Part shown: piece after piece, positions 1-63,396 of the stretch
Position numbering within the stretch: position 1 is the first letter of the stretch
How the letters are laid out: every line of letters begins with the position of its first letter
Assembly: GCA_027310185.1 (NCBI GenBank)
Contig: DAIDBH010000006.1
Coordinates: 64,001 to 128,000 of the forward strand
Source: Thermoplasmatales archaeon
GTDB lineage: Archaea; Thermoplasmatota; Thermoplasmata; Thermoplasmatales; Thermoplasmataceae
Length of the DNA stretch: 64,000 nt
Reading direction: 5' to 3'
Position numbers and translations under genes: made by a program
Notes under the pieces: model-generated
The model's input: the letters and a program-made list of their open reading frames with translations, nothing else
Databases searched by the model: none
What the model was told of the DNA's origin: nothing

Positions 1-166
1 TACATATCGAAACAGAGAAAGTCGAGGGAGAACGGGGAGAATCAAATGTTTCCTCTATCGAGATAACGCTCTCAAAATGATTTTTTCTCTTAATATATAA
101 ATACTTTTCACAAAAAATTCTTAAAAAGGTTAAATTGCTCCGAAGTGATATGGTATTGTTGATTCA

Positions 167-1147
167 ATGTCAGAAGTTCTAAAAATCAGTGTTGATCTGA
201 GTGGCAAACTGGATCTGATTAACAAAAGACTCTCAGAAGTCCTGAAGACGGACAATGAGAAATTGAACGAGATGTCAAATTATACAGTATCCTCAGGCGG
301 AAAGAGACTCAGGCCACTGATTGTCCTGCTTGTTTATGAATTAAGCACCACAAAGCCGGTAGAAAATGCACTCGACCTGGCAGTCGCTTACGAGATAATG
401 CACAGTGCCAGCCTGATCCACGATGATATAATTGATGAAGCTGAAGAGAGGAGGGGCATGCCTTCGCTTCATAAAAAATACAGTCTAGGGGATGCAATAG
501 TAACAGGTGATTACATGTTCTCAGTTGCTTACAGGATTGGAGCCACATATGGGATTGATGTTTCCAATGTTGTTGCAAAGGCGGCTCAAAAGCTTGCAGA
601 AGGGCAGATAGAGGAATCCATGAATCTCGGGAATTTTGAAATCACTGAGGATACTTATTTCAATATTATAACTAACAAAACGGCATACTTCTTTGCAGCG
701 GGGGCTAAAACTGCTGCAATGGTTGCGGGTTCATCAAGAGAAGACCAGAATAACATGTTCAATTTTGCCTTCAATGTGGGAATGGCCTTTCAGATTGCAG
801 ATGATATTCTGGACATTGTGGGAAAGGAGGAGATCATCGGCAAGACTCCGTTCACAGACATGAAGCACAGTGCTCTTACGCTGCCTATGATTTATGCGCT
901 GAAGAATGGAAACGAGGCTGGGAAGAGACATCTGAAAAGCGTTTTGAGGGGGAGAGAGACAGATCCGGAAAGCATTCAGAAGGCAAAACAGTTCCTAATT
1001 GATTCAGGTTCTGTGGATTATTCAATAGAAAAGGCCAAGAAATTTATTGACATGGCAATTGAATCTGAAAAGACGGCAAAGATCAGCCCGAATCTTCAGA
1101 CATTGTTTGAGATTGCATATAGCGTAATAAGCAGGATAAGGGTTTAA
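167..1147 (+). CDS. Polyprenyl diphosphate synthase, probably medium/long-chain (quinone side chain)
   Basis: GGKRLRP, FARM ASLIHDDIID, RRG, SARM FQIADDILD. Small Ala/Ser at -5/-4 before FARM suggests a product longer than GGPP. Confidence 0.92.
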   Translation: MSEVLKISVDLSGKLDLINKRLSEVLKTDNEKLNEMSNYTVSSGGKRLRPLIVLLVYELSTTKPVENALDLAVAYEIMHSASLIHDDIIDEAEERRGMPSLHKKYSLGDAIVTGDYMFSVAYRIGATYGIDVSNVVAKAAQKLAEGQIEESMNLGNFEITEDTYFNIITNKTAYFFAAGAKTAAMVAGSSREDQNNMFNFAFNVGMAFQIADDILDIVGKEEIIGKTPFTDMKHSALTLPMIYALKNGNEAGKRHLKSVLRGRETDPESIQKAKQFLIDSGSVDYSIEKAKKFIDMAIESEKTAKISPNLQTLFEIAYSVISRIRV

Positions 1148-1148
1148 A

Positions 1149-2312
1149 ATGGTAAGAATATTATTGTATACTGGAAAAGGTGGGGTAGGTAAAACAAGCG
1201 TTTCGGCAGCAACAGGCATAGAACTGGCAAAAAGAGGATTGAAGACCCTCGTTATTTCAACAGATCCGGCTCACAGCCTGAGAGATGCGTTTAAGAGAAA
1301 CATAGGGAGCGAGCCTGTTGAGGTCAGTAAGAATCTCTTTCTTCAGGAGATCAGTGTCACAGAGGCAATAAAGAAGTACTGGGATAACCTTAAACTATAT
1401 CTTACAGCACTAATGAGATCACAGGGTGTGGACGGTATTGCGGCTGAAGAAATAGCGACCATGCCAGGTTTTGATGAGGCAACCGAACTACTTTACATAA
1501 GGGAATACGCAAATGACAAGAGGTTTGACGTAGTAGTGATGGATACAGCACCCACGGGAGAATCCCTTAAATTACTGTCATTTCCGGAAGCTTTTTCATG
1601 GTACATGGAGAGGATATTCCCCATAAGCAGGAAAACGGCAAAGATAATGCGTCCTCTTATGAAGCCTTTCCTTGGTGTCCCTATTCCTGATGACAAGGTT
1701 TTTGGAAGTATTGAGGAGCTCTATTCCCAGATGAGGGAAGTGAAAGAAATACTCTCAGATCCTCAGACGACAACAATAAGACTGGTATGCAACCCTGACA
1801 GGATGTCATTCAATGAGACAAAGAGAGCTTTTACGTATCTATTAATGTACGGGTATAACGTGGATAGCGTGATTGTGAACAAGATTTATGCAGATGATAC
1901 GGGTGAATTTCTGAAAAAGTGGAGGGAATCCCAAACAGAAGTCCTGGAAGAGATCGAAACTGCATTCGCTGATCTCAAAATTATGAAGATCCCCATGAGT
2001 GCAAACGAACCTACCGGACAGAAACTGCTCGAGGAAATGGGAAAGAAGCTGTATGAGGATGTTGATCCATTAAGTATAATGAGCAGTATCATACCTCCAG
2101 TACAGTTCATAAGTGAAGATGATCATAAAATGGTAAAGATAAGGATACCATTTGCTGACAAGAAGAACACCCAGTTGCATAACAGGGGAGGTGAGCTCGT
2201 GGTACAGATAGATAACTGGAGAAGAGTCTTCTTCCTGCCACAGAGCATGAGTGATCTCAACCCTACTAACGCAGAGTTTAATAAGGGCTTTCTCAATATA
2301 GAGATGAGTTAA
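1149..2312 (+). CDS. ArsA/GET3-family ATPase with C-terminal HSP20/alpha-crystallin-like domain (Get3d-like)
   Basis: P-loop GKGGVGKT, STDPAHSL, DTAPTGE. Single ATPase domain plus a beta-rich tail (VKIRIPF...GELVVQIDNWRRVFFLP...AEFNKGFLNIEM). Confidence 0.9.
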   Translation: MVRILLYTGKGGVGKTSVSAATGIELAKRGLKTLVISTDPAHSLRDAFKRNIGSEPVEVSKNLFLQEISVTEAIKKYWDNLKLYLTALMRSQGVDGIAAEEIATMPGFDEATELLYIREYANDKRFDVVVMDTAPTGESLKLLSFPEAFSWYMERIFPISRKTAKIMRPLMKPFLGVPIPDDKVFGSIEELYSQMREVKEILSDPQTTTIRLVCNPDRMSFNETKRAFTYLLMYGYNVDSVIVNKIYADDTGEFLKKWRESQTEVLEEIETAFADLKIMKIPMSANEPTGQKLLEEMGKKLYEDVDPLSIMSSIIPPVQFISEDDHKMVKIRIPFADKKNTQLHNRGGELVVQIDNWRRVFFLPQSMSDLNPTNAEFNKGFLNIEMS

Positions 2313-2513
2313 ATGGTAGAGAAAACAATTGGCGGAAAAAACGGGAAAATACACTTTGAATTTGATCTTGAACTCCCGGGACTGAAAGAGTCTGCCGAGG
2401 ATTTCCTTTCATTCATGAAAGCTGCGGCAGATGAGATGGTTGATGTAGGAAGGAAAGTCGCTTCAAAGGGAAACACTGAAAAGAGAGAGATAAAGAAAAT
2501 AAATATTAAATAA
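2313..2513 (+). CDS. Small hypothetical protein (66 aa), amphipathic helix, C-terminal KKINIK
   Basis: ATG directly follows the TAA of the ATPase gene; plausible protein composition. Confidence 0.75.
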   Translation: MVEKTIGGKNGKIHFEFDLELPGLKESAEDFLSFMKAAADEMVDVGRKVASKGNTEKREIKKINIK

Positions 2514-2561
2514 TTTTTAAACAACCACTATTCATATTAACATTGTATTAATTACCTGATC

Positions 2562-4103
2562 ATGGTTGATTTGGAGAGGATTAAGAAGAATACTTTTGAA
2601 AAGCTTGGTCTGTCTGATAGTAATTCGGGTGTGTTTTATGGGAAATGGGAAAAATTTTCTGAAAAGGATGCCATCACTGTAAAGAGCCCAATAAATGGAG
2701 CGCTACTGGGAAAGGTTTCAGTTGCCAATCCTGATACTTACGACAAAACAGTTTCATCATTGCGAAAGGCATTTTCAGAGTGGAGCGACGTTCCGGGACC
2801 CAAAAGAGGTCTCCTCATTAAGAAAATCTCAGACGCACTCTCCGAGAAAAAGGAACTTCTGGGAAGGATTGTTTCACTGGAAGTTGGAAAAACCAACGTT
2901 GAGGGACAGGGTGAAATCCAGGAAATGATAGACGTTGGATACTATGCAACAGGACTGGGCAGGCAGATATATGGAAATACCATAGCCAGCGAAAGACCAG
3001 AGCATGTACTTTATGAGAAGTTCCTTCCACTTGGTGTTGTAGGAGTCATAACAGCATTCAACTTCCCATCTGCAGTATGGTCATGGAACTCATTTTTAGC
3101 TGCAACTGTAGGAGACACTGTCTTATGGAAACCATCATCAAAGGCTGCCCTGACTTCGGTTGCTGTAATGAATGTAATAGGAAAAGTTCTGGAAAAAGAG
3201 AACTACCCAAATATATTTGGTCTTGTAAATGGCAGAGGATCAAGCATAGGTGAGTTGCTGTCAAAGGATGAGAGGATTCCACTCGTTTCCTTTACAGGTT
3301 CTGTTAAAACAGGAAGGCATATCTCATCAGTTGTTTCAGGCAGATTCGGCAGGACAATACTTGAACTTGGAGGGAACAACTGCGCAATAGTCAGCGAGAA
3401 GGCAGACATGGATATTGCACTGAAAGGTGTTGGATTCGGGGCACTTGCCACAGCGGGCCAGAGATGTACAAGCACAAGAAGGGCCGTTGTCAGCGAGAAG
3501 ATATACGAGGACTTCAAGAAGAGGCTTATTGAGGCTTACAGGAAAGCCAGAATTGGTAATCCACTTGAGAATGGAGTGCTTGTAGGACCCCTGATAGATG
3601 AGGATGCTGTGGTGAATTATGAGAAGGCTATAGTGAAGGCGGTTGAACAGGGAGGAAAGGTCCTGACAGGAGGAAAGAGACATAAAGGTGAGAGCAACGG
3701 CTATTATGTGGAACCAACAATAATAGAAGCCAAGAAGGGCATGGAAATCACGAAAGAGGAAACCTTTGCACCTATCCTCTACCTCTTCAAGTATTCCAAT
3801 CTGAAAGAAGCCATTGAAATTCACAATGGTGTTCCTCAGGGACTCTCATCGGCTATGTTCACAACAGATCTGAGGGAGGAGGAAATTTTCCTCTCATCAA
3901 AGGGGTCTGACTGCGGTATAGCAAACATTAATACAAGCACTGCAGGTGCTGAAATTGGTGGTGCATTTGGTGGCGAGAAAGATACAGGTGGAGGAAGAGA
4001 ATCAGGCAGTGATGCATGGAAGGCATATACGAGAAGAATCACCATAACGAAGAATTATGGTAATGAGTTGCCACTTTCTCAGGGAGTCACTTTTGACCTC
4101 TGA
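2562..4103 (+). CDS. Aldehyde dehydrogenase, ALDH7/antiquitin-like
   Basis: ITAFNFP, SFTGS, LELGGNN, TAGQRCT, ETFAP, GAEIGGAFGGEKDTGGGRESGSDAWK, C-terminal LPLSQG. Confidence 0.93.
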   Translation: MVDLERIKKNTFEKLGLSDSNSGVFYGKWEKFSEKDAITVKSPINGALLGKVSVANPDTYDKTVSSLRKAFSEWSDVPGPKRGLLIKKISDALSEKKELLGRIVSLEVGKTNVEGQGEIQEMIDVGYYATGLGRQIYGNTIASERPEHVLYEKFLPLGVVGVITAFNFPSAVWSWNSFLAATVGDTVLWKPSSKAALTSVAVMNVIGKVLEKENYPNIFGLVNGRGSSIGELLSKDERIPLVSFTGSVKTGRHISSVVSGRFGRTILELGGNNCAIVSEKADMDIALKGVGFGALATAGQRCTSTRRAVVSEKIYEDFKKRLIEAYRKARIGNPLENGVLVGPLIDEDAVVNYEKAIVKAVEQGGKVLTGGKRHKGESNGYYVEPTIIEAKKGMEITKEETFAPILYLFKYSNLKEAIEIHNGVPQGLSSAMFTTDLREEEIFLSSKGSDCGIANINTSTAGAEIGGAFGGEKDTGGGRESGSDAWKAYTRRITITKNYGNELPLSQGVTFDL

Positions 4104-4112
4104 TTAAACAGG

Positions 4113-6992: not shown

Positions 6993-7934
6993 ATGAAAAT
7001 TAGTGAGATTCATAGCAGATTAAACAGGAGATGCATAATAGCAATTAGGCAGCATAAAGGAATTTTTAGCGTACTTTCAAGGTTGGAAAAGGTCACACCT
7101 GTATTCATTTTCAACGAAGGAAATGTTACATACATCAGACTATTCTTCCTCAAGAACGAGATATCAAACTCAGCAATTTCTCCCATTCTTTCCAGGAAGG
7201 ATCTGGTGGAGAACAGGTCATTTTATTCCATAACAGAGAGTGTGGAGAATGATGAACAAACCAGTATTATCACAAGGCTTCTGGAAGCCCCTTCAGTGGC
7301 CTTGAATAACACATACCTGCTAAGGGATGAATTGTTTATTGACTTCAGATTTCACGAGGATAAGCTTCACGAGATTAACGATATTTTGGCCGAAGTCATG
7401 GGTAAACTGAAGGATTTCAGGATAGTTTCAATGACACATTCTCTCAGCCTCAGGAGGAGGATGGATGAAATAAGGCAGCAGACACCTCTCTCATTGGTAA
7501 AATATACACTCAGGACACCTGAAGACAATACAATACTGAAATATATAAAATCCATAGATCCTGAATCAGTGGCAGAAATTCAGGGAAGCATCCTGTCTGA
7601 TAAGGGAGTGAAGGTTTTATTGTATACGACCAGGCCCATAAAACATCCTGGCGTTAAGGTTGTTTCTGAAGAAGATCTCGTTTATGAGGCTTTTGTAAAG
7701 GAAAAAACACTTGAGGACGGTATGAAACTTGGTAATAACGCTGGGATACCAAGGCTTGCATTCTTCTTGACTGTGGAAAATGGAATTCCATGTGATACCA
7801 CCTTTGTGCCTGCAGCAGAAGCCGACGAATATATATCAATTATGATGAGTTCACTCATGTCAGATCACGAAACGCACCCACTACTCCAATTCTTCTCTTC
7901 ACTTGATGATGAGGAGGTATGGAGCTGGGTATAA
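6993..7934 (+). CDS. Hypothetical protein, paralog of 21310..22197
   Basis: 313-aa ORF followed by a T-tract; shares LLEAPSV...Y...FRFH...EINDIL pattern with 21310..22197. Confidence 0.75.
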   Translation: MKISEIHSRLNRRCIIAIRQHKGIFSVLSRLEKVTPVFIFNEGNVTYIRLFFLKNEISNSAISPILSRKDLVENRSFYSITESVENDEQTSIITRLLEAPSVALNNTYLLRDELFIDFRFHEDKLHEINDILAEVMGKLKDFRIVSMTHSLSLRRRMDEIRQQTPLSLVKYTLRTPEDNTILKYIKSIDPESVAEIQGSILSDKGVKVLLYTTRPIKHPGVKVVSEEDLVYEAFVKEKTLEDGMKLGNNAGIPRLAFFLTVENGIPCDTTFVPAAEADEYISIMMSSLMSDHETHPLLQFFSSLDDEEVWSWV

Positions 7935-8033: not shown

Positions 8034-9236
8034 TTGTTGGAACAGAACAGGCTCTCGGGAACCATCTATGCTTCAAGACTTGTATATGCCATTAACTGGT
8101 TCACAATAGCCCCTGCGCTGATTTTCATCCAGAAACAGCTAAATGTTTCATCCATAGAGCTCGGGCTCATAGCCTCAGCCTTTTTTATTGGGTTGATGCC
8201 GTTTCAACTACTGAGTGGCATTATCTCCATAAAAACATCACCAAGATTCCTATCAATTACAGGTTTGATTTTGATTGGGTCTTTTTCGATCATAACTGGG
8301 TTGTCCCAGTCCTTTACGGAGATATTTATATCGAGGCTAGTCCTTGGGATAGGGAGTGCCTTATTTTCCTCACCAGCCCTTTCCCTCCTATCCAGTGATG
8401 ACAGGAATCTTGCTTCAAGAAGGGTTGGGAATTACAATGCCATATTCAGTATTGGTTCAGGTGTCAGTATAATTATCTGGGCAGTTCTTGATCCATTTAT
8501 AGGGTGGAGATTTTCAATGTATTTCACAGGAATCTTATCCCTATTATGTGCTTTTTTTATTGTTGTCAACATTAAACCCCAACACATAAAAAAAGAATCA
8601 ATTGCTAATAAAACTGAACTTAAAAGAATTCTACAAAGCAGTAAAAGATGGATGCTTGGATTTTCAGCTGCAATTGCGCCCCTGTCTGAAACTATTATTG
8701 GATAGTTTTTTGTGTATTATTCTGAAAAAACAAACCTATTCTCTTCTCTGGAATCAGGGATCATAATATCTCTCTATTTCATCGTTGGGCTCCTAGGAGG
8801 TGTAATATATGGTAGATTTTATAACAGAACAACTCATAAAAATTCACTGTATATGTTGACCCTTACTGCATGTTCTATCCTATTTATCACAATATCATTT
8901 TCCAGAAACTTATATGTTCTTATTGTAGTATTATGGGTAATTGGTGCACTTACAGCTGCTATCCTATCAATGCTTTATTTCATAGTGATGCAGCTTGAGC
9001 CTAGTTCTAACTACCTTCCATTCTCCCTTGGTTTCAATAACTTCATGCAGAAAGTGATATCCATATCCTCACCCATAGTTTTCATATTTATTGCTGTCAG
9101 GGTAGATTATTCCATGGCATGGCTAATACTCGGAGTTTCTGGACTGTTTCTGGCATTTCTCTACCCTGGGTTGTATTCAAATATATGGGAAGGCGATGCA
9201 GGACATTCTAGTAATAGATTTCTGACGAAACCATGA
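8034..9236 (+). pseudogene. MFS transporter interrupted by one in-frame TAG (8703-8705)
   Basis: The two track ORFs share a frame: GGA TAG TTT TTT GTG. Joined length is about 400 aa with about 12 TM segments; SRLVLGIGSALFSSPA motif. Confidence 0.8.
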
Positions 9237-16154: not shown

Positions 16155-17528
16155 TCACACCCCTCCCTGCTTATTTGAATTCCGCTTTTCTTTTATGTCA
16201 CCAGATTCATAACTTGATGGCTTTCCCCTGAATACCCTGGCGAAGAAATAGAAGGTAAATGGTATGAGGAAAAGATAGAAAGCAATTATGAGGTAACCTG
16301 GCACAATCAGGGCATTAGAGTAGTTAGCTGCCTGGTTTACAGTCATTATGTTGTAAATGATCCATGGCTGTCTTCCCACTTCATCTGTCACCCATCCCAT
16401 GTCATAAACAATGAGTGCAAAAAACCCGACTGCAATTTCAAGGTACATTATGCTTTTTCTTTTGAACATATCCTTTCTCAGTACTTCGTAAATGAAGAAT
16501 ATGAAGAAGAATAGACCGAGTATAAGTCCTCCCAGAACCATTACGTCAAATGATGTGTGGACGAATAGAGGAGGCCAGTCAGATTGTGGGTATGAAGAAA
16601 GACCGGGCAACTTTGTGATTCCTGCTTCAAAATTTGCCAGAAATGCCTGCAGTCCTGGTACTGTTATTGAACCGACAATTCTACCATTCACTATGGAACC
16701 AAGTAGATGTTCACCAAAACCACTTCCAGGATTTGGATCAAGTTCTATGGCTGCGTATTTTACAGGCTGATACTTGAGAAGGCTAATTACCTCGTTTCCA
16801 CCTGTGATTCCTGCAAGCAGAATGAAGACTGCAGACATCCATCCGGAAATTCTTATTCCAAGTTTTGTAATCAATCTTGTTTCACTGTCCTTTGATCTGA
16901 TATACTGGTATGCAAAGAAGGCCCCCAGTATAACAAACCCTACAAAGATCGTTGTTGTTAGAACATGAGCAAGTTCGTTGAATGTGGAAACAGTATCAAA
17001 TGGAGCAAATGGATTCACGTCTGTAATTTTCCCTGTGCTCAGATAAACTGATTTATTGAAGCCGTTTGGTGTGTTCATCCATGCGTTTACCATTGTGATG
17101 AATACGGCAGACATGATAACACCAATTGCAACAAGAATGGATATTCCAAGATTCGCATATTTCCATCTAAACACATCCTGATAATATACATAGATGACCA
17201 GTGCAAACGTTTCAAGGAAGAATGCAGAAACTTCTGCGTAGAAGAGTGATATGGCACCGGTGCTTGATACAAATGTCATGAATCCTGGAAACAGGTTAAC
17301 CAGTTCCACTGCCAGAACGATACCGCTTGCTGTACCCACACCGAATGAAACTATAAACATTCTCTTGAGCTTGAAGAGCATCGTTTTATACTCCGGTTTA
17401 TCCTTTCTTGTAAGCATAAATTCAAGTATTACTAGTATCAGGCTCAGCGCTATGCTTGCACTCACTATAATTATATGAGAACCTATTGTGTATGCAAACA
17501 GGAACCTGTCAAAATTAGCTGACAGCAT
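16155..17528 (-). CDS. cydA: Cytochrome bd oxidase subunit I (copy 1)
   Basis: GSHII, GTASG, NAWMNTP, QPVKYAAIE, GWVTDEVGRQPW. Confidence 0.93.
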   Translation of the reverse strand: MLSANFDRFLFAYTIGSHIIIVSASIALSLILVILEFMLTRKDKPEYKTMLFKLKRMFIVSFGVGTASGIVLAVELVNLFPGFMTFVSSTGAISLFYAEVSAFFLETFALVIYVYYQDVFRWKYANLGISILVAIGVIMSAVFITMVNAWMNTPNGFNKSVYLSTGKITDVNPFAPFDTVSTFNELAHVLTTTIFVGFVILGAFFAYQYIRSKDSETRLITKLGIRISGWMSAVFILLAGITGGNEVISLLKYQPVKYAAIELDPNPGSGFGEHLLGSIVNGRIVGSITVPGLQAFLANFEAGITKLPGLSSYPQSDWPPLFVHTSFDVMVLGGLILGLFFFIFFIYEVLRKDMFKRKSIMYLEIAVGFFALIVYDMGWVTDEVGRQPWIIYNIMTVNQAANYSNALIVPGYLIIAFYLFLIPFTFYFFARVFRGKPSSYESGDIKEKRNSNKQGGV

Positions 17529-19005: not shown

Positions 19006-20451
19006 ATGACTTATGATGACCTTAATGATTTCATTTCCGATCGAAGGAAAAAAAATGATTTCATCCAGATGGAAGATGAGGTAAGCACTGAACTGGAACT
19101 TACCTGGATTCTGAGTGAGGAAGAGAGGGCAGGAAAGGGAAGAACGATTCTCTTTGAAAAGGTAAAAGGCTACGATATCCCGGTTATTGGTAATATTTTT
19201 TCAACACAGGAGAAGATGAATTCCATTCTTGGAGACACACCGGAGAATGTTGGAAATGCCCTGAGAAACCTGATCAGGCCGCCGAAAGAAAGTGAGTCGC
19301 TGATTGGCAGGGGCATGGAGATGCTGAAGGAACTTGGAGGATTGAGGCCAAAATTGCACGACAAATTACCATCTTCCTATAGTGTTATCAATTCCGTTGA
19401 CCTGGACAGGTATCCCATATGTACAACATGGCCGGATGATGCAGGACCATTCATTACACTACCTGTGGTCATTACGAGTGATCCTGAAACAGGCAGGAAA
19501 AATGCAGGCATGTACAGGATGCAGAAATATGACTCGGAAACCATGGGAATGCACTGGCAGATCCATAAGGATGGGGCAAAGCATTTTGATGAATATAAGG
19601 AGAAAGGAAAGATCATGGATGTGTCTGTTACTCTGGGAACAGACCCACTAACAATATTCTCGGCAGTTGCTCCCCTTCCAGATCCACTTGATGAATTCTC
19701 ATTCTGGGGACTGATCAGCAAGGACAGGGCAAACCTTGTAAAAGGGCAGAGTGTTGATCTTTATTATCCGATGAATTCAGAAATTGTACTGGAAGGCTAT
19801 ATTGATACTTCCGAATCGAGGATAGAAGGTCCCTTTGGAGATCATACTGGATATTATTCACTGCAGGAAGTGTTCCCTGTATTTCACGTGAAGAAAATAG
19901 TGGAGAAAAAGAATCCTGTCTATCCAACAACCATTGTGGGCAAGCTGTGGCATGAGGATGTGATAATGGGAAAATCCATAGAAAGACTGTTTCTTCCTCT
20001 TGTAAAGTTGCAGATACCGGAAATTGTTGATATGAATACGATGGAGGAAGCAGTGTTTCATGACATGATAGTTGTTTCCATAAAGAAGAGATTCCCCGGT
20101 CATGCAAAGAAGGTTATGTTTGCTGTGTGGGGTACCGGTCAGCTGATGTTTTCCAAGATAGTGGTTGTTGTTGATGACGATATAAACGTACATGACAGAA
20201 AACAGGTCATATGGGCCATGAGCACCAGGATTGACCCTGCAAGGGATGTCATTATTATCCCCGGAACACATACAGATACGCTTGATCATGCCTCATCGCT
20301 TCTGAACTATGGATCAAAGATGGGTATAGATGCAACCAGGAAATGGAAATCGGAGGGATTTAACAGGCCATGGCCGGAAACACTTTCAATGAAACAGGAT
20401 ATTCAGGAAAGAGTAGATCAACTGAGAACGAAGTTCAAGAATCAAAATTAA
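19006..20451 (+). CDS. ubiD: UbiD-family decarboxylase (menaquinone/futalosine pathway, MqnL-like)
   Basis: NAGMYRMQ, MHWQIHKDG, EGPFGDHTGYY, VVDDDINV, DTLDH, KMGIDAT. Confidence 0.92.
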   Translation: MTYDDLNDFISDRRKKNDFIQMEDEVSTELELTWILSEEERAGKGRTILFEKVKGYDIPVIGNIFSTQEKMNSILGDTPENVGNALRNLIRPPKESESLIGRGMEMLKELGGLRPKLHDKLPSSYSVINSVDLDRYPICTTWPDDAGPFITLPVVITSDPETGRKNAGMYRMQKYDSETMGMHWQIHKDGAKHFDEYKEKGKIMDVSVTLGTDPLTIFSAVAPLPDPLDEFSFWGLISKDRANLVKGQSVDLYYPMNSEIVLEGYIDTSESRIEGPFGDHTGYYSLQEVFPVFHVKKIVEKKNPVYPTTIVGKLWHEDVIMGKSIERLFLPLVKLQIPEIVDMNTMEEAVFHDMIVVSIKKRFPGHAKKVMFAVWGTGQLMFSKIVVVVDDDINVHDRKQVIWAMSTRIDPARDVIIIPGTHTDTLDHASSLLNYGSKMGIDATRKWKSEGFNRPWPETLSMKQDIQERVDQLRTKFKNQN

Positions 20452-21305
20452 AAGGTTTCATCGATTACATAAAACTGGAACATACAGTTTTTGATATACC
20501 TTTCATAGTGGCAGGTAGCTTTATTGCTGCAGGAAAATATCCGGGAACCAGGATCATCATTCTTGTAATACTTGCAGGTACACTTGCAAGAGCAACAGGA
20601 ATGTCGATCAACAGGCTGCTTGGGAAGAAGTATGATGTGATCAACCCGAGAAAGAGGCAATGGGGACTGGTTAATGGGTCCCTGTCAACTTCAAGCGCCA
20701 TTACATTCACTGTTATTGTGGCAGCCCTATTTGAGCTCTGTACGTTCCTGCTCAACACGTTCGTCTTCATTCTTTCTCCAGTAGTTCTTGCTCTTTTCAT
20801 AATAGATCCCATGCTCAAGAGAATAACAAGATGGAGGCATTTCTTCATGGGGCTGACCATAGGGGTTGGTGTCATGGCAGGATACCTTGCCGTTATCCCT
20901 CACTTTCCATCATCACCTGAAATATATATCCTGGTAATCACAACTGCTACGTGGATTGGAGGCTTTGACATGGTATACACAATACCTGATGTGGAATATG
21001 ACAGGCAGAATGATCTAAAGACAGTCATGACTGCTTATGGGATAAGAAATGGGATGATTATTTCAGATATTACTCATGCCTTTACCCTCTTATTTTTCAC
21101 CCTGCTCATATTTTACATAAACAGTTATTTCTACGCTGCAGAACTCGTTCTGATTTATTTCCTCATAATATATCAGCATTACATACTTGATCCGGATGAT
21201 ACTTCTACAGTAAGGGTTTCATTCCTTAACTCCAATTCATTCATAGGCATATCATTCCTCACTGTCCTGATACTGACACAGTACCTGCCAGCTTTTGCTT
21301 TATAA
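20370..21305 (+). CDS. ubiA: UbiA-family prenyltransferase (MqnP-like)
   Basis: IKLEHTVF, NRL...YDVINPR, WIGGFDMVYTIPDVEYD, multiple TM segments. Confidence 0.88.
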   Translation: MAGNTFNETGYSGKSRSTENEVQESKLKGFIDYIKLEHTVFDIPFIVAGSFIAAGKYPGTRIIILVILAGTLARATGMSINRLLGKKYDVINPRKRQWGLVNGSLSTSSAITFTVIVAALFELCTFLLNTFVFILSPVVLALFIIDPMLKRITRWRHFFMGLTIGVGVMAGYLAVIPHFPSSPEIYILVITTATWIGGFDMVYTIPDVEYDRQNDLKTVMTAYGIRNGMIISDITHAFTLLFFTLLIFYINSYFYAAELVLIYFLIIYQHYILDPDDTSTVRVSFLNSNSFIGISFLTVLILTQYLPAFAL

Positions 21306-21309
21306 TAAT

Positions 21310-22197
21310 CTAGCCAAGCGGGAATATATTCAATTCGTAAATTTTTACATTTTTGAAATTTACTGGGATATTACCGATGATTTTCAGCAAATATGATTGA
21401 TATACCCTGTGAATAAGGAATGTAAATTTCAAAACCCTGTCCTTCTTTTCTATCCCAAAATAAATGAGTGGGAGAATGGCTCCTTTCTTGCTGTTGAATT
21501 GCATAACCAGTTCATCGCTTATCTCAACCTCATAGGAATTATCATCTATTTTCTCAGCATCCGGTGGAACTGTACTGTCTTCATGATATACCATGAAAAA
21601 AGGGACTCTTCCAAGAGACGGGAATTTAAGGATTGCCAGATACTCCTCCCCAATATTTAGATCATAATTATCAAGGGAAAATTCTACCCTGTCAATTTCC
21701 ATATTCTCCAAGGATGTGATATACTCCATGAAACTGATCTCTTTCAGTTTCCATACTCTAAATTTTTCATCATCAAGTAAACCTGATATGAAATTGTTTA
21801 TATCCTGCATGAAACGTTCAGAAAATGTAAATGACATATAGTGCCTGCCGCCCATTACGTAATTTATTCCAGCCATGATGGATGGAATCTCTAAAATCTC
21901 TCCTATTTTCCCTGTGCTTCCCTGTAAATCACTGGAAGCAAAAAACGTATAACAGTTACCTATTTTTCTTCCACCATATTTCTGGTTGAAAATTGCCTGA
22001 TCCCTGTTTTGATTTTCTTCATTCAGGAGATACAGGAATATCATCCTTCTTTCGTCATTAAGAGCTATGAATGGAATTTTTATACTGTGTGCCCTTGAAT
22101 AGTTTTCAATGGGAGAGTTATCATTGCATTCAAGAATTATTTCATGTTTTCCATTGAAAATCCTGTATTTATCAGGAAAAAGGTTCCAGTCTGCCAT
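21310..22197 (-). CDS. Hypothetical protein, paralog of 6993..7934
   Basis: 295 aa; ILEIPSI...Y...FTFS...DINNFI...KFRV. Confidence 0.75.
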   Translation of the reverse strand: MADWNLFPDKYRIFNGKHEIILECNDNSPIENYSRAHSIKIPFIALNDERRMIFLYLLNEENQNRDQAIFNQKYGGRKIGNCYTFFASSDLQGSTGKIGEILEIPSIMAGINYVMGGRHYMSFTFSERFMQDINNFISGLLDDEKFRVWKLKEISFMEYITSLENMEIDRVEFSLDNYDLNIGEEYLAILKFPSLGRVPFFMVYHEDSTVPPDAEKIDDNSYEVEISDELVMQFNSKKGAILPLIYFGIEKKDRVLKFTFLIHRVYQSYLLKIIGNIPVNFKNVKIYELNIFPLG

Positions 22198-37716: not shown

Positions 37717-38964
37717 ATGCAAAAGCAAAGAAAAATAATCGACAAATTTACTGCCGTAAGAAATAAAACAGTTTCTCTTATAGATCCTTTAACCGTGGAA
37801 GATATGGTAATTCAGGTTGGGAACGATGTTAGTCCCGTAAGATGGCATCTGGCCCACACCACATGGTTTTTTGAAAAATTTATACTGGCATCGTTTGACA
37901 ATAATTATAAAAAATTTAATGAAAAATATGATTATCTTTTCAACTCATACTACGAAACGGTAGGTTCATTTTTCCCTAAAAATTTGAGAGGTACCCTGTC
38001 AAGACCAGGCGTTGATGAGATACTAAGATACAGGAAATATGTTAATGAGAACATAGTCCGGAATGAATCTATAATTGAAAATCCTGATGTATATTCATTA
38101 ATGGAACTGGGGATTAACCATGAACAGCAGCACCAGGAACTTATGTTGATGGATATAAAGTTTAACTTTTTCAATAATCCCATTTTACCAGCGTATAAAG
38201 AAATAAGGGAATTTCCGAAATACCATTCAAGGCCCATGAAATTTAAGAGTATAAAGGGTGGAGAATACGAAATTGGAAATTCAGGAAATGAATTTAAGTT
38301 CGATAATGAATATCCAGAGCACAGAATATATTTAGAAAATTTTGAGATAGGAGACCGTCCCGTAACTAACGGAGAATACCTGGAATTTATTAATGCTGGA
38401 GGATATGAAAATCCAAAATTATGGTTATCAGAAGGATGGTCGTGGATCCATAAAGAAAACATAAGGTCGCCACTTTACTGGATAAGAGATGGTGATTCAT
38501 ATAACCAGTTCAACCTTAATGGTACCTATGCTCTAGATCCGGAAGAGCCTGTATCACATTTGAGTTATTACGAGGCGGACGCATATGCCACATGGGCTGG
38601 CAGAAGATTACCCACGGAGGAGGAGTGGGAAGTTGCTTTCAAGAATGAGCCAATAACAGAAAGGGAGAACTTCATGGACAACGATTTCTTTAGACCACTT
38701 CCACCTTCTTCCAGAACAGCAACGCAGGCGATGGGAGACCTGTGGGAATGGACAAGAAGTGCTTATTTACCTTATCCCAGAAGTAAACCACTTGAAGGCT
38801 CCGTTGGAGAATACAATCATAAATTTATGTCCGGTCAGATGGTTCTGAGAGGTGGTTCATGCGTGACCCCGAGAGATCACATAAGGCACACATACAGGAA
38901 TTTCTTTGCTCCAGATAGAAGATGGATGTTCAGTGGACTAAGGCTGGCAGGCGATGTGAAATGA
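37717..38964 (+). CDS. egtB: Ergothioneine sulfoxide synthase EgtB
   Basis: DinB domain WHLAHTTWFFE and HEQQHQEL; FGE-sulfatase domain VTNGEY, RLPTEEEWE, LRGGS, YRNFF. Confidence 0.93.
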   Translation: MQKQRKIIDKFTAVRNKTVSLIDPLTVEDMVIQVGNDVSPVRWHLAHTTWFFEKFILASFDNNYKKFNEKYDYLFNSYYETVGSFFPKNLRGTLSRPGVDEILRYRKYVNENIVRNESIIENPDVYSLMELGINHEQQHQELMLMDIKFNFFNNPILPAYKEIREFPKYHSRPMKFKSIKGGEYEIGNSGNEFKFDNEYPEHRIYLENFEIGDRPVTNGEYLEFINAGGYENPKLWLSEGWSWIHKENIRSPLYWIRDGDSYNQFNLNGTYALDPEEPVSHLSYYEADAYATWAGRRLPTEEEWEVAFKNEPITERENFMDNDFFRPLPPSSRTATQAMGDLWEWTRSAYLPYPRSKPLEGSVGEYNHKFMSGQMVLRGGSCVTPRDHIRHTYRNFFAPDRRWMFSGLRLAGDVK

Positions 38965-39923
38965 GTGAAATAAAAATTATTGACATGAAACCAGAAACAG
39001 GAGAATTTAAAAAAGAGATAATAAGTGGCCTGAAAAAGACTCCAAAGGAAATAAACCCCAAATTCTTTTATGATGAAAAGGGTTCAATGCTTTTTGAACG
39101 AATAACAGAGACCGAAGAATATTATCCAACAAGAACAGAGAGAGAAATCCTTGAGAATAATATAGAAGAGATATGCACATACTTTAAAGATGGAAGCGCA
39201 CTCTTTGAGTACGGAAGTGGAGGATCAAAGAAGACACAGATTATATTGGATCACTGCAAGCAGATAAAGGCATATGTTCCAATGGATATTTCCATTTCGG
39301 CCCTCCAATACTCATCACAACACGTTGCAGCATTATATCCATCCCTGAATGTAATACCCATATGTGTGGATTACACAAGACCCTTCGAAATTCCTTTTCT
39401 CGATCTTGAGGGAAATATTATTGCTATTTTTCTTGGCTCAAGCATAGGGAATTTTGAACCTGAAACCACTTCAAGATTCCTAAGGACTTGTACTGAAATG
39501 CTGGGATCTGAAGATCGAATACTAATAGGTGTAGATCTTAAGAAGGATAAAACGGTTCTGGAGAGAGCATATAATGACAGTGAAGGGATAACTGCAGAAT
39601 TCAACTTAAATCTAATTGACCGAATCAATAGAGAATTTGAATTGAATCTAAATAAATCTGATTTCAAGCATATAGCCTTTTACAATGAGGATAATGGAAG
39701 GATTGAGATGCACATTGAAGTAAGAAGAGATATGAATATAAATCTCGATGGAAATAATATTTATTTCAGGGAGGGAGAACTTATTCATACTGAAAATTCA
39801 TACAAATATGATGTGAATGAATTTAACAATCTTGCAAAAAAGAATCATCTGGAAGTTGAGAAAATATGGATTGATCAGAGGAAATATTTTTCACTGTTTC
39901 TGATCGGAACGGAAATTAGATGA
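38961..39923 (+). CDS. egtD: Histidine N-alpha-methyltransferase EgtD
   Basis: PKFFYDEKGS, YYPTRTE, EYGSG, FLGSSIGNF, AYNDSEGITAEFN, IHTENSYKY. ATG at 38961 gives an ATGA overlap with egtB. Confidence 0.93.
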   Translation: MSEIKIIDMKPETGEFKKEIISGLKKTPKEINPKFFYDEKGSMLFERITETEEYYPTRTEREILENNIEEICTYFKDGSALFEYGSGGSKKTQIILDHCKQIKAYVPMDISISALQYSSQHVAALYPSLNVIPICVDYTRPFEIPFLDLEGNIIAIFLGSSIGNFEPETTSRFLRTCTEMLGSEDRILIGVDLKKDKTVLERAYNDSEGITAEFNLNLIDRINREFELNLNKSDFKHIAFYNEDNGRIEMHIEVRRDMNINLDGNNIYFREGELIHTENSYKYDVNEFNNLAKKNHLEVEKIWIDQRKYFSLFLIGTEIR

Positions 39924-49255: not shown

Positions 49256-50230
49256 TTACTTTCCAGCATTTTCTAGTTTATTCTTTTCTTCCTGCTTTCC
49301 CTTTTCGAAATATATGTCATAAAAGAAGTATGTAAGTATCAATAGTATGATACCTCCTATTATCGTTGCATAAAACATTTCTGTCTGCATAGCTGCGTCA
49401 TTTAGTATTGAATTTATGTTGAGGGTTCTACCCAATAAGTAAGGATACTGAGACAAGGCCACTACGAAGATAGATATGGCAAAGATTCCCTGGAAGATCA
49501 ACTTGTTCGTTATGTACTTCCTTGTGGAAGGTAGTATCCAGAGGATTGGTATAAGAAGGAACAGGATAAGCGGTATCACAGAGAGAGTACTATTGCTGTA
49601 ATCACCCAGATCATGCAGTGAAACCCCTGCAATAATGAGACCTATCACGATAACAAGCAGTGGTAGAAGACGATTTACATTGAGATCGTAGAATATGGAT
49701 GCCATTCCAAAAAGTAGAATTGCAATTCCAACTATGAATCCATCATCTGGCAGGAATGTAATGAATTTTAAGAGGTCGAAGGTTCTTGCACTGTAATCTA
49801 TACCATGTCCACCAATGAAACTGGCATAAATCAGTAGTACCATCGTTCCAAGGACAAAGGTAACCACTGCATAGACTGAATATAGTAGCTTTTTGTTTAT
49901 GGTCTTGTTTTTCCATATCATTTCAGCGAATACAATCATGGAATTACGAAGCACATAAAGAATGAGAAAAATCAGTATATACGCAATGAATGAAAAAGCA
50001 AGTAGAGGAAGAACATCTGGGACAAGACCTTCAAGGTTCACCACGTAGAAAACAAAGAGTGTTCCTGTAATCTCCCATATTGGCAACAGGAAACCAAACA
50101 CCTTCGTCTGACTTTCCTTGTATCTAAAAAGAATGGCTGAAGCGGCCATCAGTTCAGTGGACGCACTTGTGAAAAAAATCGAAAAAATCAGTATATTAAG
50201 TATTACCTCAGCATTAACTGTTCCTGTCAT
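49256..50230 (-). CDS. cydB: Cytochrome bd oxidase subunit II-like (copy 2)
   Basis: PIWEITGTLF motif, hydrophobic, 4-nt overlap with cydA copy 2. Confidence 0.75.
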   Translation of the reverse strand: MTGTVNAEVILNILIFSIFFTSASTELMAASAILFRYKESQTKVFGFLLPIWEITGTLFVFYVVNLEGLVPDVLPLLAFSFIAYILIFLILYVLRNSMIVFAEMIWKNKTINKKLLYSVYAVVTFVLGTMVLLIYASFIGGHGIDYSARTFDLLKFITFLPDDGFIVGIAILLFGMASIFYDLNVNRLLPLLVIVIGLIIAGVSLHDLGDYSNSTLSVIPLILFLLIPILWILPSTRKYITNKLIFQGIFAISIFVVALSQYPYLLGRTLNINSILNDAAMQTEMFYATIIGGIILLILTYFFYDIYFEKGKQEEKNKLENAGK

Positions 50231-51576
50231 TTCAACCCTCTCGCTTTATCAATTTCTGACTGAACGGATTCATGTCTCAGCACCCTGCTTACAAAGTAAA
50301 AGCTGAATGGTACAACCAGGAAATAGAATATCATTATGGCTATTCCAAGTGGGATTATAGCAGATGAAGTATTTGCAGCAGACTGCACAGTCATGACATT
50401 GTAGATGATCCATGGCTGTCGACCAACCTCGTCTGTCACCCATCCACTGTCATATACGAGTATTAGAAGTAAGCCTGATACTATCATGCCATACAGACCA
50501 ATTTTGGTTGTTATTGATTTTTGTCTCAACAATCTCCATATGAGATACAATGCGAATAACCCTACCAGGAATCCGCCACCTACCATGGTGTCAAATGTCA
50601 GGTGAATGAAAAGTGGAGGCCACAAGCTCTGTGGGTACTGGTCTAACCCCGGTAACGTACCTTTTCCAAGTGTCTGCGGATAAGCAAGCAAACTTTGCAA
50701 TTTTGGTATGGTGATTGCATAAAGTATCTTGCCCGATACCAGGATCCCACCAAGTGTTTCTGCACCGCTTGTTTTACTGTGAAGATCCAGCTCAATTGCC
50801 GCGTATTTTAACGGTTGCAGAACTATGAGCTGTGAAGCAGCCAGGCTTCCAGTTATACCTGCTAATGCTATTGAAATAAGACCCACTGCTGCGACCAGTT
50901 TCAGTCCCTTTCTGTTAAAGATTCTTTCATCCTCGCTCTTTGCCCTCAGGAAACTGTATGCAAGATAGGCACCTATTAGGAAGACACCAGCGGTCACTGT
51001 CGCAGTAACGACGTGAAGGTCTTCATATAACACAGATGGTGCAGCTATAGCCGCCAGAGGATTAATATCTGTTAATATGCCAGTCTTGAGGTAGTAAGGA
51101 ATGTTGAAGCCCGCAGGTGTGTTCATCCATGCGTTTATCATGGTTATGAAAACAGCAGACATCACAGTACCAACCGCAACCATCAATGATAGGACCCAGT
51201 GTTTATATCTGTTTTTGTAGAAATCCCAGTAGTAAAAATAGAGAACGAGACAGATAGATTCCAGAAGAAATGCAAATACCTCATAATAGAAGGGTAGGAT
51301 ATCGACCTTTCCGACAACAACCATAAAGCTAGGCCATAGAGCAAACAGTTCAACTGCAAGAACCGTTCCACTTGCAGTTCCTATTGCAAAAAATATGACA
51401 AGTGCGATCGTCAACCTCCTGGCTAATGCTTCATAGTATGGGTCTTTCCTCCTTATCCCGATATACTCAGCCAGTGATACAATAATACTGAGCCCTATAC
51501 TCATCGTTACGATCAGTATATGAGACGCAAGGGTAAATCCCATAAGGAAACGGTCGAAGTTGACTATGAAGGTCAT
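50227..51576 (-). CDS. cydA: Cytochrome bd oxidase subunit I (copy 2)
   Basis: ASHIL, GTASG, NAWMNTP, QPLKYAAIE, GWVTDEVGRQPW. Confidence 0.93.
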   Translation of the reverse strand: MTFIVNFDRFLMGFTLASHILIVTMSIGLSIIVSLAEYIGIRRKDPYYEALARRLTIALVIFFAIGTASGTVLAVELFALWPSFMVVVGKVDILPFYYEVFAFLLESICLVLYFYYWDFYKNRYKHWVLSLMVAVGTVMSAVFITMINAWMNTPAGFNIPYYLKTGILTDINPLAAIAAPSVLYEDLHVVTATVTAGVFLIGAYLAYSFLRAKSEDERIFNRKGLKLVAAVGLISIALAGITGSLAASQLIVLQPLKYAAIELDLHSKTSGAETLGGILVSGKILYAITIPKLQSLLAYPQTLGKGTLPGLDQYPQSLWPPLFIHLTFDTMVGGGFLVGLFALYLIWRLLRQKSITTKIGLYGMIVSGLLLILVYDSGWVTDEVGRQPWIIYNVMTVQSAANTSSAIIPLGIAIMIFYFLVVPFSFYFVSRVLRHESVQSEIDKARGLK

Positions 51577-61501: not shown

Positions 61502-62281
61502 CTATTTTCTGATAGAGTTCTCATCAATCTTTTCGAGAAATATTTCTTCCCCAATTTCATCATAATAATCCATGAAAGTCCTGATTTCCTTTCTCATCAA
61601 ACTATTAAGGTCATATGTGAGTGATTGATAATATTCATTCAGGATCCCTTTTTCCATGTTGTGTTCTTTCGATATCCTATCTAAATCCTTAGTTATTGTC
61701 CATCTTGGTATGTTCTTTAACGCCACGAGATTCTCATCAGTACCTCTGTCAGTCAGGCTAACTGTTACTGCGTAAATTGAATGCATATTAAATATCTTGG
61801 AGATCATATGAGTGATATCGAATATAATCTTGGTATCTGTTCTATATATGTCAAGAGCCCTGTTTCCGATTACCAGTGCAAAATCTTCCTCTTTCAGTAA
61901 GTTTTCGACAGAATTACTCCTGCTCCTTATGAGTACAGAACCAGGAAACAATCTTTCAAGGATAAGCTTCAAAAAGAATGCAGTAGTTTCTGTTTCAGAT
62001 GTTACTGCAACCCTCATCCCGGGGAATGGATCACTTCCATTTGATACTAGCAGATTTGAATCGGATTTTCCCCTTCCGGAAATTGTGGGCCCATCGGCCA
62101 ATGATAATGATTCTCTGTTCTTGAAATAATCAACAAGCGAGATCATAGAATAATCTACTTTCCCGTCGAGCAAATCTCTCAGATTGCTTCTTGTATCACT
62201 GCGGGATACCTCAAAATTCTCTTCTGCAACATGGTCAAGAGGATCGCTGTGTATTAGATTGATCAACCTTAAACTGCTCAA
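61502..62281 (-). CDS. mqnA: Chorismate dehydratase-like (MqnA/MqnD family)
   Basis: INLIHSDPL, SETT, ALVIGNRAL, YAV; 4-nt overlap with the MqnE-like gene. Confidence 0.7.
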   Translation of the reverse strand: MSSLRLINLIHSDPLDHVAEENFEVSRSDTRSNLRDLLDGKVDYSMISLVDYFKNRESLSLADGPTISGRGKSDSNLLVSNGSDPFPGMRVAVTSETETTAFFLKLILERLFPGSVLIRSRSNSVENLLKEEDFALVIGNRALDIYRTDTKIIFDITHMISKIFNMHSIYAVTVSLTDRGTDENLVALKNIPRWTITKDLDRISKEHNMEKGILNEYYQSLTYDLNSLMRKEIRTFMDYYDEIGEEIFLEKIDENSIRK

Positions 62282-63396
62282 AAGTATCCCTTCAGGTTAT
62301 AAAATGTGTCTCTCTTTGCTGGTATTTTACCAATTTCAGATACAAGTCTTCCAAGTTCCTCAACAGTAGTCATTTCATGCCTGTTTGTAGCACCAAATAT
62401 CTTTTCGCTTATGGCTGTTCCAACTAGATCGTTTCCTCCTCCAGTAAGCGCCATCTGACCTATTCCCTTACCCATTGATACCCAGTATACACTGATGTTC
62501 CTCATCCACTTTCCCATTATCATTCTGGCAAGAGCTATTACCTTGAGATCCTTCTCACCGGAGGCAGGTTCCCTTACCTTTCCCATCTTCATTAGAGGGG
62601 TATTCTCCGGGCTGAACTTCAGTGGAATGAAAGATAGAAAGCCGCCTGTGGTTGCCTGCAGATCTCTTAGTCTGACCATGTGATCGATGATATGGCCCCA
62701 ATTTTCAACGCTTCCATATGTCATTGTGGAGTTTCCCTTGATTCCCATTTCGTGTATTATCTTGGCGTCCTCCAGCCATTTTTCTCCACTGATCTTCTCT
62801 TTTGTAGTCATTATTTTCCTGACCTCTGAATCAAATATTTCAGCTCCGCCTCCAGTATGTGCTTCCATTCCAGCATTATGAAACCTTGTTACTGTTTCCC
62901 TGATTGAGTTGCCTGTAGTCCTTGCAATGAAATCTATCTCGGGTATGGTTAGTGCTTTAAGAGTTGCCTCTGGCATGTATTTTTTAACTGTTCTGAATAT
63001 ATCTTCGTAATATTCCAGCGGAAGATAAGGGTTGAAACCTCCAACAATATGGATTTCTGTGGGATTGTACTGCCTAGCCTTTTCAAGTTCCCGTTTAACA
63101 TCTTCTATGGATAGTTCATAACCCTTGTCTGTTTTTCCCTTAATTTTTGCCGGTACATAAAAGGCACATATGGGACAGCTGGCTGCGCAATAATTACTGT
63201 AATTTATGTTATATGAAACTGCAAAAGTAACTGTATTCCCAACCTGATAGTCTGTTAGGTTGTCTGCCATGGACATCATTTCCTGCATATTGAATTGCTC
63301 CAGTAATTCGGCTCCTTCCTGACGACTCAGTTTATGACCAGCTTTCAGGAGGTCAAGCCAATAGTCCTGAGCATAAGAATTTATCATGATAATCAT
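62278..63396 (-). CDS. mqnE: Radical SAM enzyme, aminofutalosine synthase (MqnE-like)
   Basis: CAASCPICAF, EIHIVGG, KALT..EI, GGGAEIF, FIPLKF.PENT, YWV. Confidence 0.82.
   Translation of the reverse strand: MIIMINSYAQDYWLDLLKAGHKLSRQEGAELLEQFNMQEMMSMADNLTDYQVGNTVTFAVSYNINYSNYCAASCPICAFYVPAKIKGKTDKGYELSIEDVKRELEKARQYNPTEIHIVGGFNPYLPLEYYEDIFRTVKKYMPEATLKALTIPEIDFIARTTGNSIRETVTRFHNAGMEAHTGGGAEIFDSEVRKIMTTKEKISGEKWLEDAKIIHEMGIKGNSTMTYGSVENWGHIIDHMVRLRDLQATTGGFLSFIPLKFSPENTPLMKMGKVREPASGEKDLKVIALARMIMGKWMRNISVYWVSMGKGIGQMALTGGGNDLVGTAISEKIFGATNRHEMTTVEELGRLVSEIGKIPAKRDTFYNLKGYF

Follow-up and report, generated by a model that had tools for sequence, protein, structure and literature searches.

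A crystallin-bearing Get3-like ATPase and a conserved small partner protein encoded next to a prenyl synthase in a Cuniculiplasma genome

Three adjacent genes and the Get3-like ATPase

The stretch of DNA analyzed here comprises 64,000 nucleotides of a Thermoplasmatales genome (assembly GCA_027310185.1, contig DAIDBH010000006.1, positions 64,001 to 128,000) and is referred to as the window, and close to its beginning three open reading frames (ORFs) follow each other on the plus strand with gaps of 1 nt and 0 nt. They encode a trans-prenyl diphosphate synthase of 326 residues (167–1147, recognized by PF00348 and its motifs), an ATPase of 387 residues in which the Get3/ArsA fold is combined with a C-terminal alpha-crystallin (HSP20-like) domain (1149–2312), and a small soluble protein of 66 residues (2313–2513). 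This spacing had already been given in a preliminary description of the window, which regarded the three genes as a candidate system for isoprenoid/quinone handling, and the ORF list of the window bears it out. The conserved unit is the ATPase together with the small protein, and not the trio. Names on near-identical public proteins identify the host genome as Cuniculiplasma; it has a size of 1.88 Mb, is 99.5% complete, and contains a single ArsA-family gene and two polyprenyl synthases. Crystallin-bearing Get3 homologs are widespread, with neither an assigned function nor a known partner, and the locus presents an intact crystallin-bearing Get3 of a non-phototrophic archaeon together with a conserved small partner.

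The ATPase was assigned by Pfam and NCBIfam profiles, a PDB sequence search, AlphaFold2 modeling, and Foldseek. PF02374 (ArsA_ATPase) matches residues 3–303 with 321.9 bits and PF17886 (ArsA_HSP20) residues 324–386 with 64 bits, the P-loop GKGGVGKT and the DTAPTGE motif are both intact, the only cysteine (C214) lies in an alignment column that varies, and there is no CXXC motif. The preliminary description had thus correctly listed the single ArsA domain, the lone cysteine without CXXC, the DTAPTGE sequence, and the crystallin tail. In the AlphaFold2 model, with a predicted local distance difference test (pLDDT) value of 86.7, strands are found at residues 318–386 and helices at 136–171, and residues 150–185, a candidate region for a TRC40 insert or hydrophobic client groove, contain three methionines. 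The PDB sequence search returned the archaeal Get3 3zq6 (E 8.2e-57), NosGet3d 3igf (E 3.4e-25), and AtGet3d 8elf (E 8.5e-12). Foldseek likewise gave its best E-value for 3zq6 (9.4e-28), and an alignment over the full length, including the crystallin domain, was obtained only with NosGet3d 8egk (394 columns, TMq 0.72). The NosAFP equivalog model NF050088 gave a score of 159, compared with a cut-off of 325.

The archaeal Get3 proteins of M. thermautotrophicus (3ZQ6) and M. jannaschii (3UG6) are therefore the best sequence and fold matches to the ATPase domain, but they lack a crystallin domain. With Get3d from Arabidopsis (At1g26090, 8ELF) and Nostoc (All4481, 3IGF/8EGK), the window ATPase shares the Get3 fold, the crystallin tail, and the absence of CXXC; it differs from them in that its catalytic motifs are intact, its host is non-phototrophic, and its sequence is closer to archaeal Get3. 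Get3d has been tied to photosynthesis, and the accessible text of that study discusses no partner gene (Barlow, 2023; PMC10248533). Farkas et al. assigned the archaeal crystallin-bearing Get3 homologs to a 'Group 11', for which Euryarchaeota are listed, and mentioned similar proteins in many non-phototrophic bacteria (PMC6593721). The traits given for Group 11 and the bacterial Group 6 in Table 1 of that paper, as far as it was accessible, are a single domain, a crystallin tail, a nucleotide site, and the absence of CxC/CxxC, and all of them are found in the window ATPase (PMC6593721). Judged by its sequence, the ATPase belongs to the archaeal 'Group 11'/bacterial 'Group 6' of Farkas with Get3d architecture. 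A tree calculated with a quick method, which has long branches and contains no cyanobacterial or plant rows, places the window ATPase inside a Thermoplasmatales clade (support 96) and groups it with crystallin-bearing archaeal and bacterial ATPases. In the accessible text of Farkas et al., the term 'operon' refers to ars operons only, and no gene-neighborhood analysis is given (PMC6593721).

The small partner protein and its distribution

The small protein was characterized by its position 3' of the ATPase gene, family alignments, profile searches, and hhalign. It consists of an N-terminal strand-like segment, a conserved proline, an amphipathic helix at residues 25–54, and a C-terminal KKINIK sequence, and a model of the protein alone shows one confident helix with unstructured ends. 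The protein is soluble, with 38% charged residues and a maximal Kyte–Doolittle mean of 0.38 over 19 residues, and it had no match in Pfam or NCBIfam, PF13080 included. The amphipathic character proposed in the preliminary description was thereby confirmed. The same description had considered the protein as a client that is inserted into the membrane, and this idea has to be abandoned, as a protein without a hydrophobic segment cannot be a membrane-inserted client; a tail-anchored client is ruled out for the same reason. A protein atlas was also searched with the small protein and gave no usable match, and no description of the partner turned up in our literature searches.

Its conservation was followed in relatives at increasing distance. 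We searched 41 genomes, including that of the window, and found an intact full-length ATPase in 23 of them and a broken copy in one more. At all 23 intact Thermoplasmatales loci, an ORF of 59–73 residues lies at −8 to +9 nt from the ATPase stop codon, and it is also kept at those loci at which no synthase is adjacent. The small ORFs of these 23 loci end with K-K/R-I/V-x-I/L-K. A profile built from 19 of them detected 18 cluster representatives among 1.84 billion proteins, all of 58–74 residues and with the same tail, and hhalign linked a profile of the genus alone to that of the other Thermoplasmatales with 97.9% probability (E 3.4e-13). In the broken copy (L029, G024:C3:62645-66376), the ATPase gene is interrupted by one TAG and one TAA and is read as three pieces, and the synthase is read as two; the genome is 50% complete, and the locus is either decaying or poorly assembled.

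The pair is probably also present at the protein level in C. divulgatum. In the accessible part of the proteome data of C. divulgatum S5, the ArsA-family ATPase CSP5_0647 is listed with 0.104 fmol% on the cold sheet and 0.079 fmol% in a second listing, and the uncharacterized protein CSP5_0646 with 0.049 and 0.088 fmol%, and CSP5_0648 has no row there (PMC7285479, Table S2). With the dehydrogenase CSP5_0645 on one side and the ATPase CSP5_0647 on the other, CSP5_0646 probably corresponds, by gene order, to the small protein. That the small gene is a chance ORF is contradicted by its conservation together with this proteome entry.

At the level of the phylum, 27 of 30 loci were examined; L051, where the partner was seen, was left out, as were L056 and L060, which contain a partial ATPase only. 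All 27 loci have an ORF of 50–300 residues on the same strand that starts between −100 and +60 nt from the ATPase stop codon. A strict C-terminal basic/hydrophobic-x-hydrophobic motif is present in 14 of the 27, compared with 12 of 351 background ORFs (3.4%), and a loose motif within the last 30 residues in 21 of the 27, compared with 48 of 351 (13.7%). The longer partners in the phylum have the helix and the tail in common with the short ones. Four Get3 loci that lack the crystallin domain (L030, L148, L149, and L158) have no such partner.

In three of these four crystallin-less Thermoplasmatota loci, the Get3 gene is followed by a gene for a protein with an N-terminal membrane helix (177–219 residues as read). 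These ORFs (L030:842-1492 on the minus strand and those after the ATPase in L148 and L158) are conserved and start at −10 to 0 nt; the proteins have 216–219 residues in L030 and L148 and 177 residues as read in L158, where the ORF runs into masked bases. By its sequence, this protein is a candidate membrane receptor, contrasting with the soluble partner of the crystallin-bearing ATPases.

Beyond the phylum, a scan of a genome collection with the ATPase alignment yielded 80 loci with 34–66% identity from Archaeoglobaceae, Chloroflexota, Actinomycetota, Bacillota, Spirochaetota, Planctomycetota, Acidobacteriota, Verrucomicrobiota, Chlorobiota, Bacteroidota, and others. Of the 79 loci whose downstream DNA was long enough, 45 have a downstream ORF ending with hydrophobic-x-hydrophobic, although three of these 45 are chance ORFs by eye, and the background frequency is 234 of 2470 ORFs (9.5%). 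The alignment of 41 broad partners shows a conserved proline, a helix with the sequence RExLLAxRxLID, a linker, and an I-x-I tail. A hidden Markov model (HMM) of this alignment matches 52 of the 80 loci, 41 of them trained and 11 new, and it also matches Thermoplasmatota partners on which it was not trained (L039, L041–L044, L049–L052, L062, L063, L021–L025, and L027). The other Thermoplasmatales were connected to the broad family by hhalign with 83.5% probability (E 8.3e-6).

Within this broad family, an annotated relative exists on a B. thuringiensis plasmid, where the genes annotated as 'ArsA family ATPase' and 'DUF3926 domain-containing protein' overlap, the product of the latter having KNIIIE at its C-terminus. 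When 10 and 13 diverse partners were compared with Pfam and NCBIfam, the single match above cut-off was PF13080 (DUF3926) in one Bacillus partner. DUF3926 agrees with the window partner in its position after the ATPase, its size, and its C-terminal I-x-I, but the window protein itself has no Pfam match. A full-text literature search for 'DUF3926' returned no paper.

Several further candidates were considered and rejected. The partner profiles A5 and A3 found nothing below E 0.09 among PDB sequences, and a relation of A3 to MinE was at chance level (E 0.29–0.89). Two longer proteins looked like fusions of ATPase and partner, but their middle parts resemble out-of-frame translation, and we regard them as frameshift artefacts; no fused partner was found in the C-terminal ATPase tails of the partner-less loci. 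All-against-all clustering of the neighbors at the 80 loci revealed no other recurrent neighbor, and an 18-locus cluster turned out to be an ORF antisense to the ATPase gene. Another conserved downstream gene takes the place of the usual partner in the Chlorobiaceae loci L115, L118, L122, and L129; it encodes 139–163 residues and ends with ...SFQKTTVKK or ...FQKGPI(R/K)(K/R). Two ATPase matches per locus are present in L115, L122, and L129, but not in L118.

The prenyl synthase and the quinone pathway

The synthase matches PF00348 with 230 bits and contains a first DDIID motif at residue 86, preceded by MHSASLIH with Ala at −5 and Ser at −4, and a second motif, DDILD, at residue 212. The small residues before the first DDxxD had been pointed out in the preliminary description and are indeed there. 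As a rule, small residues at −4/−5 before this motif go along with a long-chain product. The two DDxxD motifs and the small −4/−5 residues are common to the window synthase and the heptaprenyl, octaprenyl, and solanesyl diphosphate synthases (HepT, IspB), but the window synthase stays below every equivalog cut-off. Its best NCBIfam score was 201, compared with a cut-off of 468, and its scores for TIGR02748 (191 bits) and TIGR02749 (187 bits) resemble those for short-chain models; as none of the cut-offs was reached, we assigned no chain length to it. The second synthase of the genome (L005:1345-2412) has Phe-Phe at the residues preceding its DDxxD and is of the short-chain type, and therefore the quinone side chain is likely to come from the window synthase. 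The quinones of T. acidophilum have 7 prenyl units according to the accessible text of the source (PMC10821996). Going by these sequence features, the window synthase probably supplies the medium- or long-chain side chain of a menaquinone-type quinone.

Genes of a futalosine-type pathway, which the preliminary description had reported for the window, were found in our Pfam scan of the window ORFs: UbiD (19006–20448), UbiA (20370–21302), a VitK2_biosynth gene of the MqnA/D type (61505–62281), and a CofH/MqnC-like radical S-adenosylmethionine gene of the MqnC/E type (62281–63396). They are 17–60 kb distant from the trio. Two genes for cytochrome bd oxidase subunit I also lie in the window on the minus strand (16158–17528 and 50230–51576), near the UbiD/UbiA pair (19006–21302) and the MqnA/D-like and radical S-adenosylmethionine genes (61505–63396), which gives a quinone-centered neighborhood.

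The synthase gene lies directly upstream of the ATPase gene at all 13 loci of the genus, the window counted, and at four of six loci in other genera of the family (L021, L026, L028, and L029, not L019 and L020); further loci with an adjacent synthase are L038 and L068, the latter in a metagenome-assembled genome (MAG) of the Ferroplasmaceae. It is upstream at none of the five loci of the sister family f3, and in the broad survey it is adjacent at one of the 80 loci, namely L068, with one more weak match 3.4 kb away. The synteny expected from the preliminary description thus holds for the genus and much of its family and fails in f3 and in the broad survey; apart from the Ferroplasmaceae MAG, an adjacent synthase was seen only inside the GTDB family of the window. 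The downstream aldehyde dehydrogenase gene has been kept over much the same range as the synthase, and for this reason adjacency inside the family counts for little as a sign of a common function.

Three complete genomes (G100, G183, and G205) contain the ATPase and the partner and have no match to PF02621 (MqnA/D). A further genome, G019, which is 96% complete, contains a synthase ortholog with 54% identity and PF02621, but no ArsA/Get3 gene. There (L161, G019:C3:401370-405332), an Alba-like gene precedes the synthase ortholog, an order that the locus tags also indicate for C. divulgatum, and nothing ATPase-like is located 3' of the synthase, as though the ATPase–partner pair had been inserted or lost together. 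The distribution among genomes provides no tie between the ATPase and the quinone pathway. Of the preliminary proposal of isoprenoid/quinone handling, the gene identities and the futalosine-type genes thus remain, and what speaks against it is the synteny beyond the family and the patterns in G100, G183, G205, and G019. Having the synthase and the pair in one operon is probably an arrangement of this GTDB family, the Thermoplasmataceae, that gives co-expression, and the ATPase probably does not thereby become a carrier dedicated to isoprenoids.

As to signals around the genes, an A/T-rich stretch with TATA-like elements (about 90–103 and 121–135; 90–135 on the plus strand) lies 5' of the synthase start and was identified by eye as a candidate archaeal promoter, and a run of five T directly 3' of the stop codon of the small gene (2514–2518, plus strand), read from the sequence, is a candidate archaeal terminator. 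The aldehyde dehydrogenase gene (2562–4103) is located downstream of the small gene, after a 48-nt spacer. Contigs from RNA libraries of two runs, which belong to one sample of one study, cover window positions 1–4082 and 1–4111 without differences, although DNA carry-over is possible and a single transcript cannot be demonstrated from contigs. The contigs of X1 and X2 leave the window near the aldehyde dehydrogenase stop codon at 4103, at positions 4082 and 4111, respectively, and go on with adapter-like letters. Three further RNA runs contained next to none of the sequence words of the locus.

Explanations of the gene pair, and other genes of the window

The explanation that we favor, with moderate confidence, is that the second and third genes encode an ancient, two-part Get3-like chaperone module, in which a catalytically intact, crystallin-bearing ATPase works with a dedicated small soluble partner, and that the synthase is a separate unit. 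The ATPase dimer would hold hydrophobic clients in a groove, like other Get3 proteins, and the small protein would be a bound cofactor or regulator and not a client. Since the partner was seen only with crystallin-bearing ATPases in our sample, we take it to be a cofactor that docks on the crystallin domain. In small heat-shock proteins, a C-terminal IxI tail docks in the beta4/beta8 groove of a neighboring alpha-crystallin domain. The pair in the window resembles this system in that a short hydrophobic-x-hydrophobic C-terminus comes together with a crystallin fold, but here the tail and the crystallin domain are on separate polypeptides, and docking is inferred. By analogy to the IxI tails, the partner tail would dock as a beta-strand on the crystallin domain, and the partner helix, with its conserved basic residue, would act on the ATPase or its groove.

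Small regulators are familiar from deviant-Walker-A ATPases: ArsD with ArsA, Get4 with Get3, and MinE with MinD. In these cases, as here, a small protein is encoded with, or acts on, a dimeric ATPase of the same superfamily, and arsD directly precedes arsA on an E. coli plasmid, but no sequence relation of the window partner to ArsD, Get4, or MinE was found. Complex predictions with two ATPase copies and the small protein, for which alignments were used as input, gave scores of 0.15 and 0.19, compared with a mark of 0.32 and with no control runs.

Several observations weigh against our explanation. The broad-family HMM gave no match to Cuniculiplasma proteins at E ≤ 0.01, the link of Cuniculiplasma to the broad family runs via intermediate profiles, and hhalign with a mixed alignment (A3 vs. 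A5) reached only 69% probability (E 4.4e-5). At 28 of the 80 broad loci, Chlorobiaceae and Bacteroidota included, no partner is recognizable by the HMM, and therefore the partner is not universal. The adjacency of synthase and ATPase is old, as it is found in at least 6 genera with 44–95% identity, and the junction here is only 1 nt long. None of the four f6 genomes has the ATPase, a close synthase ortholog, or PF02621. Finally, AtGet3d co-purified with lipid-sized molecules, as stated in the accessible text of Barlow (2023; PMC10248533).

The last three of these points are at the same time arguments for another explanation, in which the ATPase shields polyprenyl diphosphate or quinone intermediates from the synthase and hands them to a membrane prenyltransferase, and the small protein serves as a lid or adaptor. 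The operon with the prenyl synthase in this archaeal family is a natural setting for studying such a lipid-cargo idea, for which speak the 1-nt spacing, the adjacency at all 13 genus loci and in several other genera of the family, the futalosine-type genes in the window, the joint absence of ATPase, close synthase ortholog, and MqnA/D from the f6 genomes, and the lipid-sized adducts carried by AtGet3d (PMC10248533, as far as accessible). We nevertheless consider it unlikely, as the synthase is adjacent at none of the five f3 loci and at only one of the 80 broad loci (the Ferroplasmaceae MAG), as G100, G183, and G205 hold the pair without PF02621 and G019 holds the synthase and PF02621 without the pair, and as an unrelated aldehyde dehydrogenase gene is kept alongside over a similar range. 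A combined view would be that crystallin-bearing Get3 and the I-x-I protein form a universal bacterial and archaeal chaperone, with the tail protein as the missing regulator at the site taken by Get4 on eukaryotic Get3, and that this system was recruited in the family of the window to pass C35-type prenyl chain or quinone products from the synthase to the membrane. If true, this would be the first lipid escort of the Get3 family, but we regard it as decidedly unlikely.

A canonical Get3 function is possible, albeit not likely. Here, the ATPase would target tail-anchored membrane proteins, and the small protein would be a Get4-like pre-targeting factor. The nearest solved relatives are indeed archaeal Get3 proteins (3zq6 and 3ug6), and, according to the accessible text of Barlow, in vitro binding of a tail-anchored protein was seen with both NosGet3d and AtGet3d, and the Get4 site is where their crystallin domain sits (PMC10248533). 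No receptor or tail-anchored client is encoded at the locus, however, and the accessible text of Farkas et al. reports no correlation in bacteria between the load of tail-anchored proteins and the presence of such homologs (PMC6593721). This explanation overlaps with the two-part chaperone module and differs from it only in the client class.

An arsenite pump, in which the ATPase would work with an unlinked ArsB, is extremely improbable. An ArsB gene is present on another contig (C1:205463-206704), and public annotations call such proteins 'arsenite-transporting ATPase', but the window ATPase has a single 305-position domain in its 387 residues, compared with the two halves of the 582-residue E. 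coli ArsA, and its lone cysteine lies in a variable column. Its score for the ArsA model TIGR04291 is 124.5 bits, compared with a cut-off of 650, and in the quick tree a long, supported branch stands between it and the two halves of E. coli ArsA. ArsB, ArsC, and ArsD are absent from the 55 window ORFs scanned against Pfam, in agreement with the preliminary description, which had seen none of these genes nearby and had named the phylogeny as a check, and ArsD was not found in our search of the host genome. In view of its sequence, the ATPase is not an ArsA.

Outside the trio and the quinone-related genes, the window contains a few more conspicuous genes. Two overlapping plus-strand genes (37717–38961 and 38922–39920) encode an FGE-sulfatase/DinB_2 protein and a histidine-specific methyltransferase (Methyltransf_33, E 2.7e-104), which we take to be the domain pair of ergothioneine synthesis (EgtB/EgtD-like), here in an archaeon. 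Two neighboring plus-strand ORFs (8034–8702 and 8712–9233) match positions 4–206 and 29–167 of one 347-position major facilitator superfamily profile and may, by this pattern, be the parts of a transporter gene that was split or disrupted. Two genes of the Ta1207 family (PF19020), to which no function has been assigned, lie at 6993–7931 on the plus strand and 21313–22197 on the minus strand.

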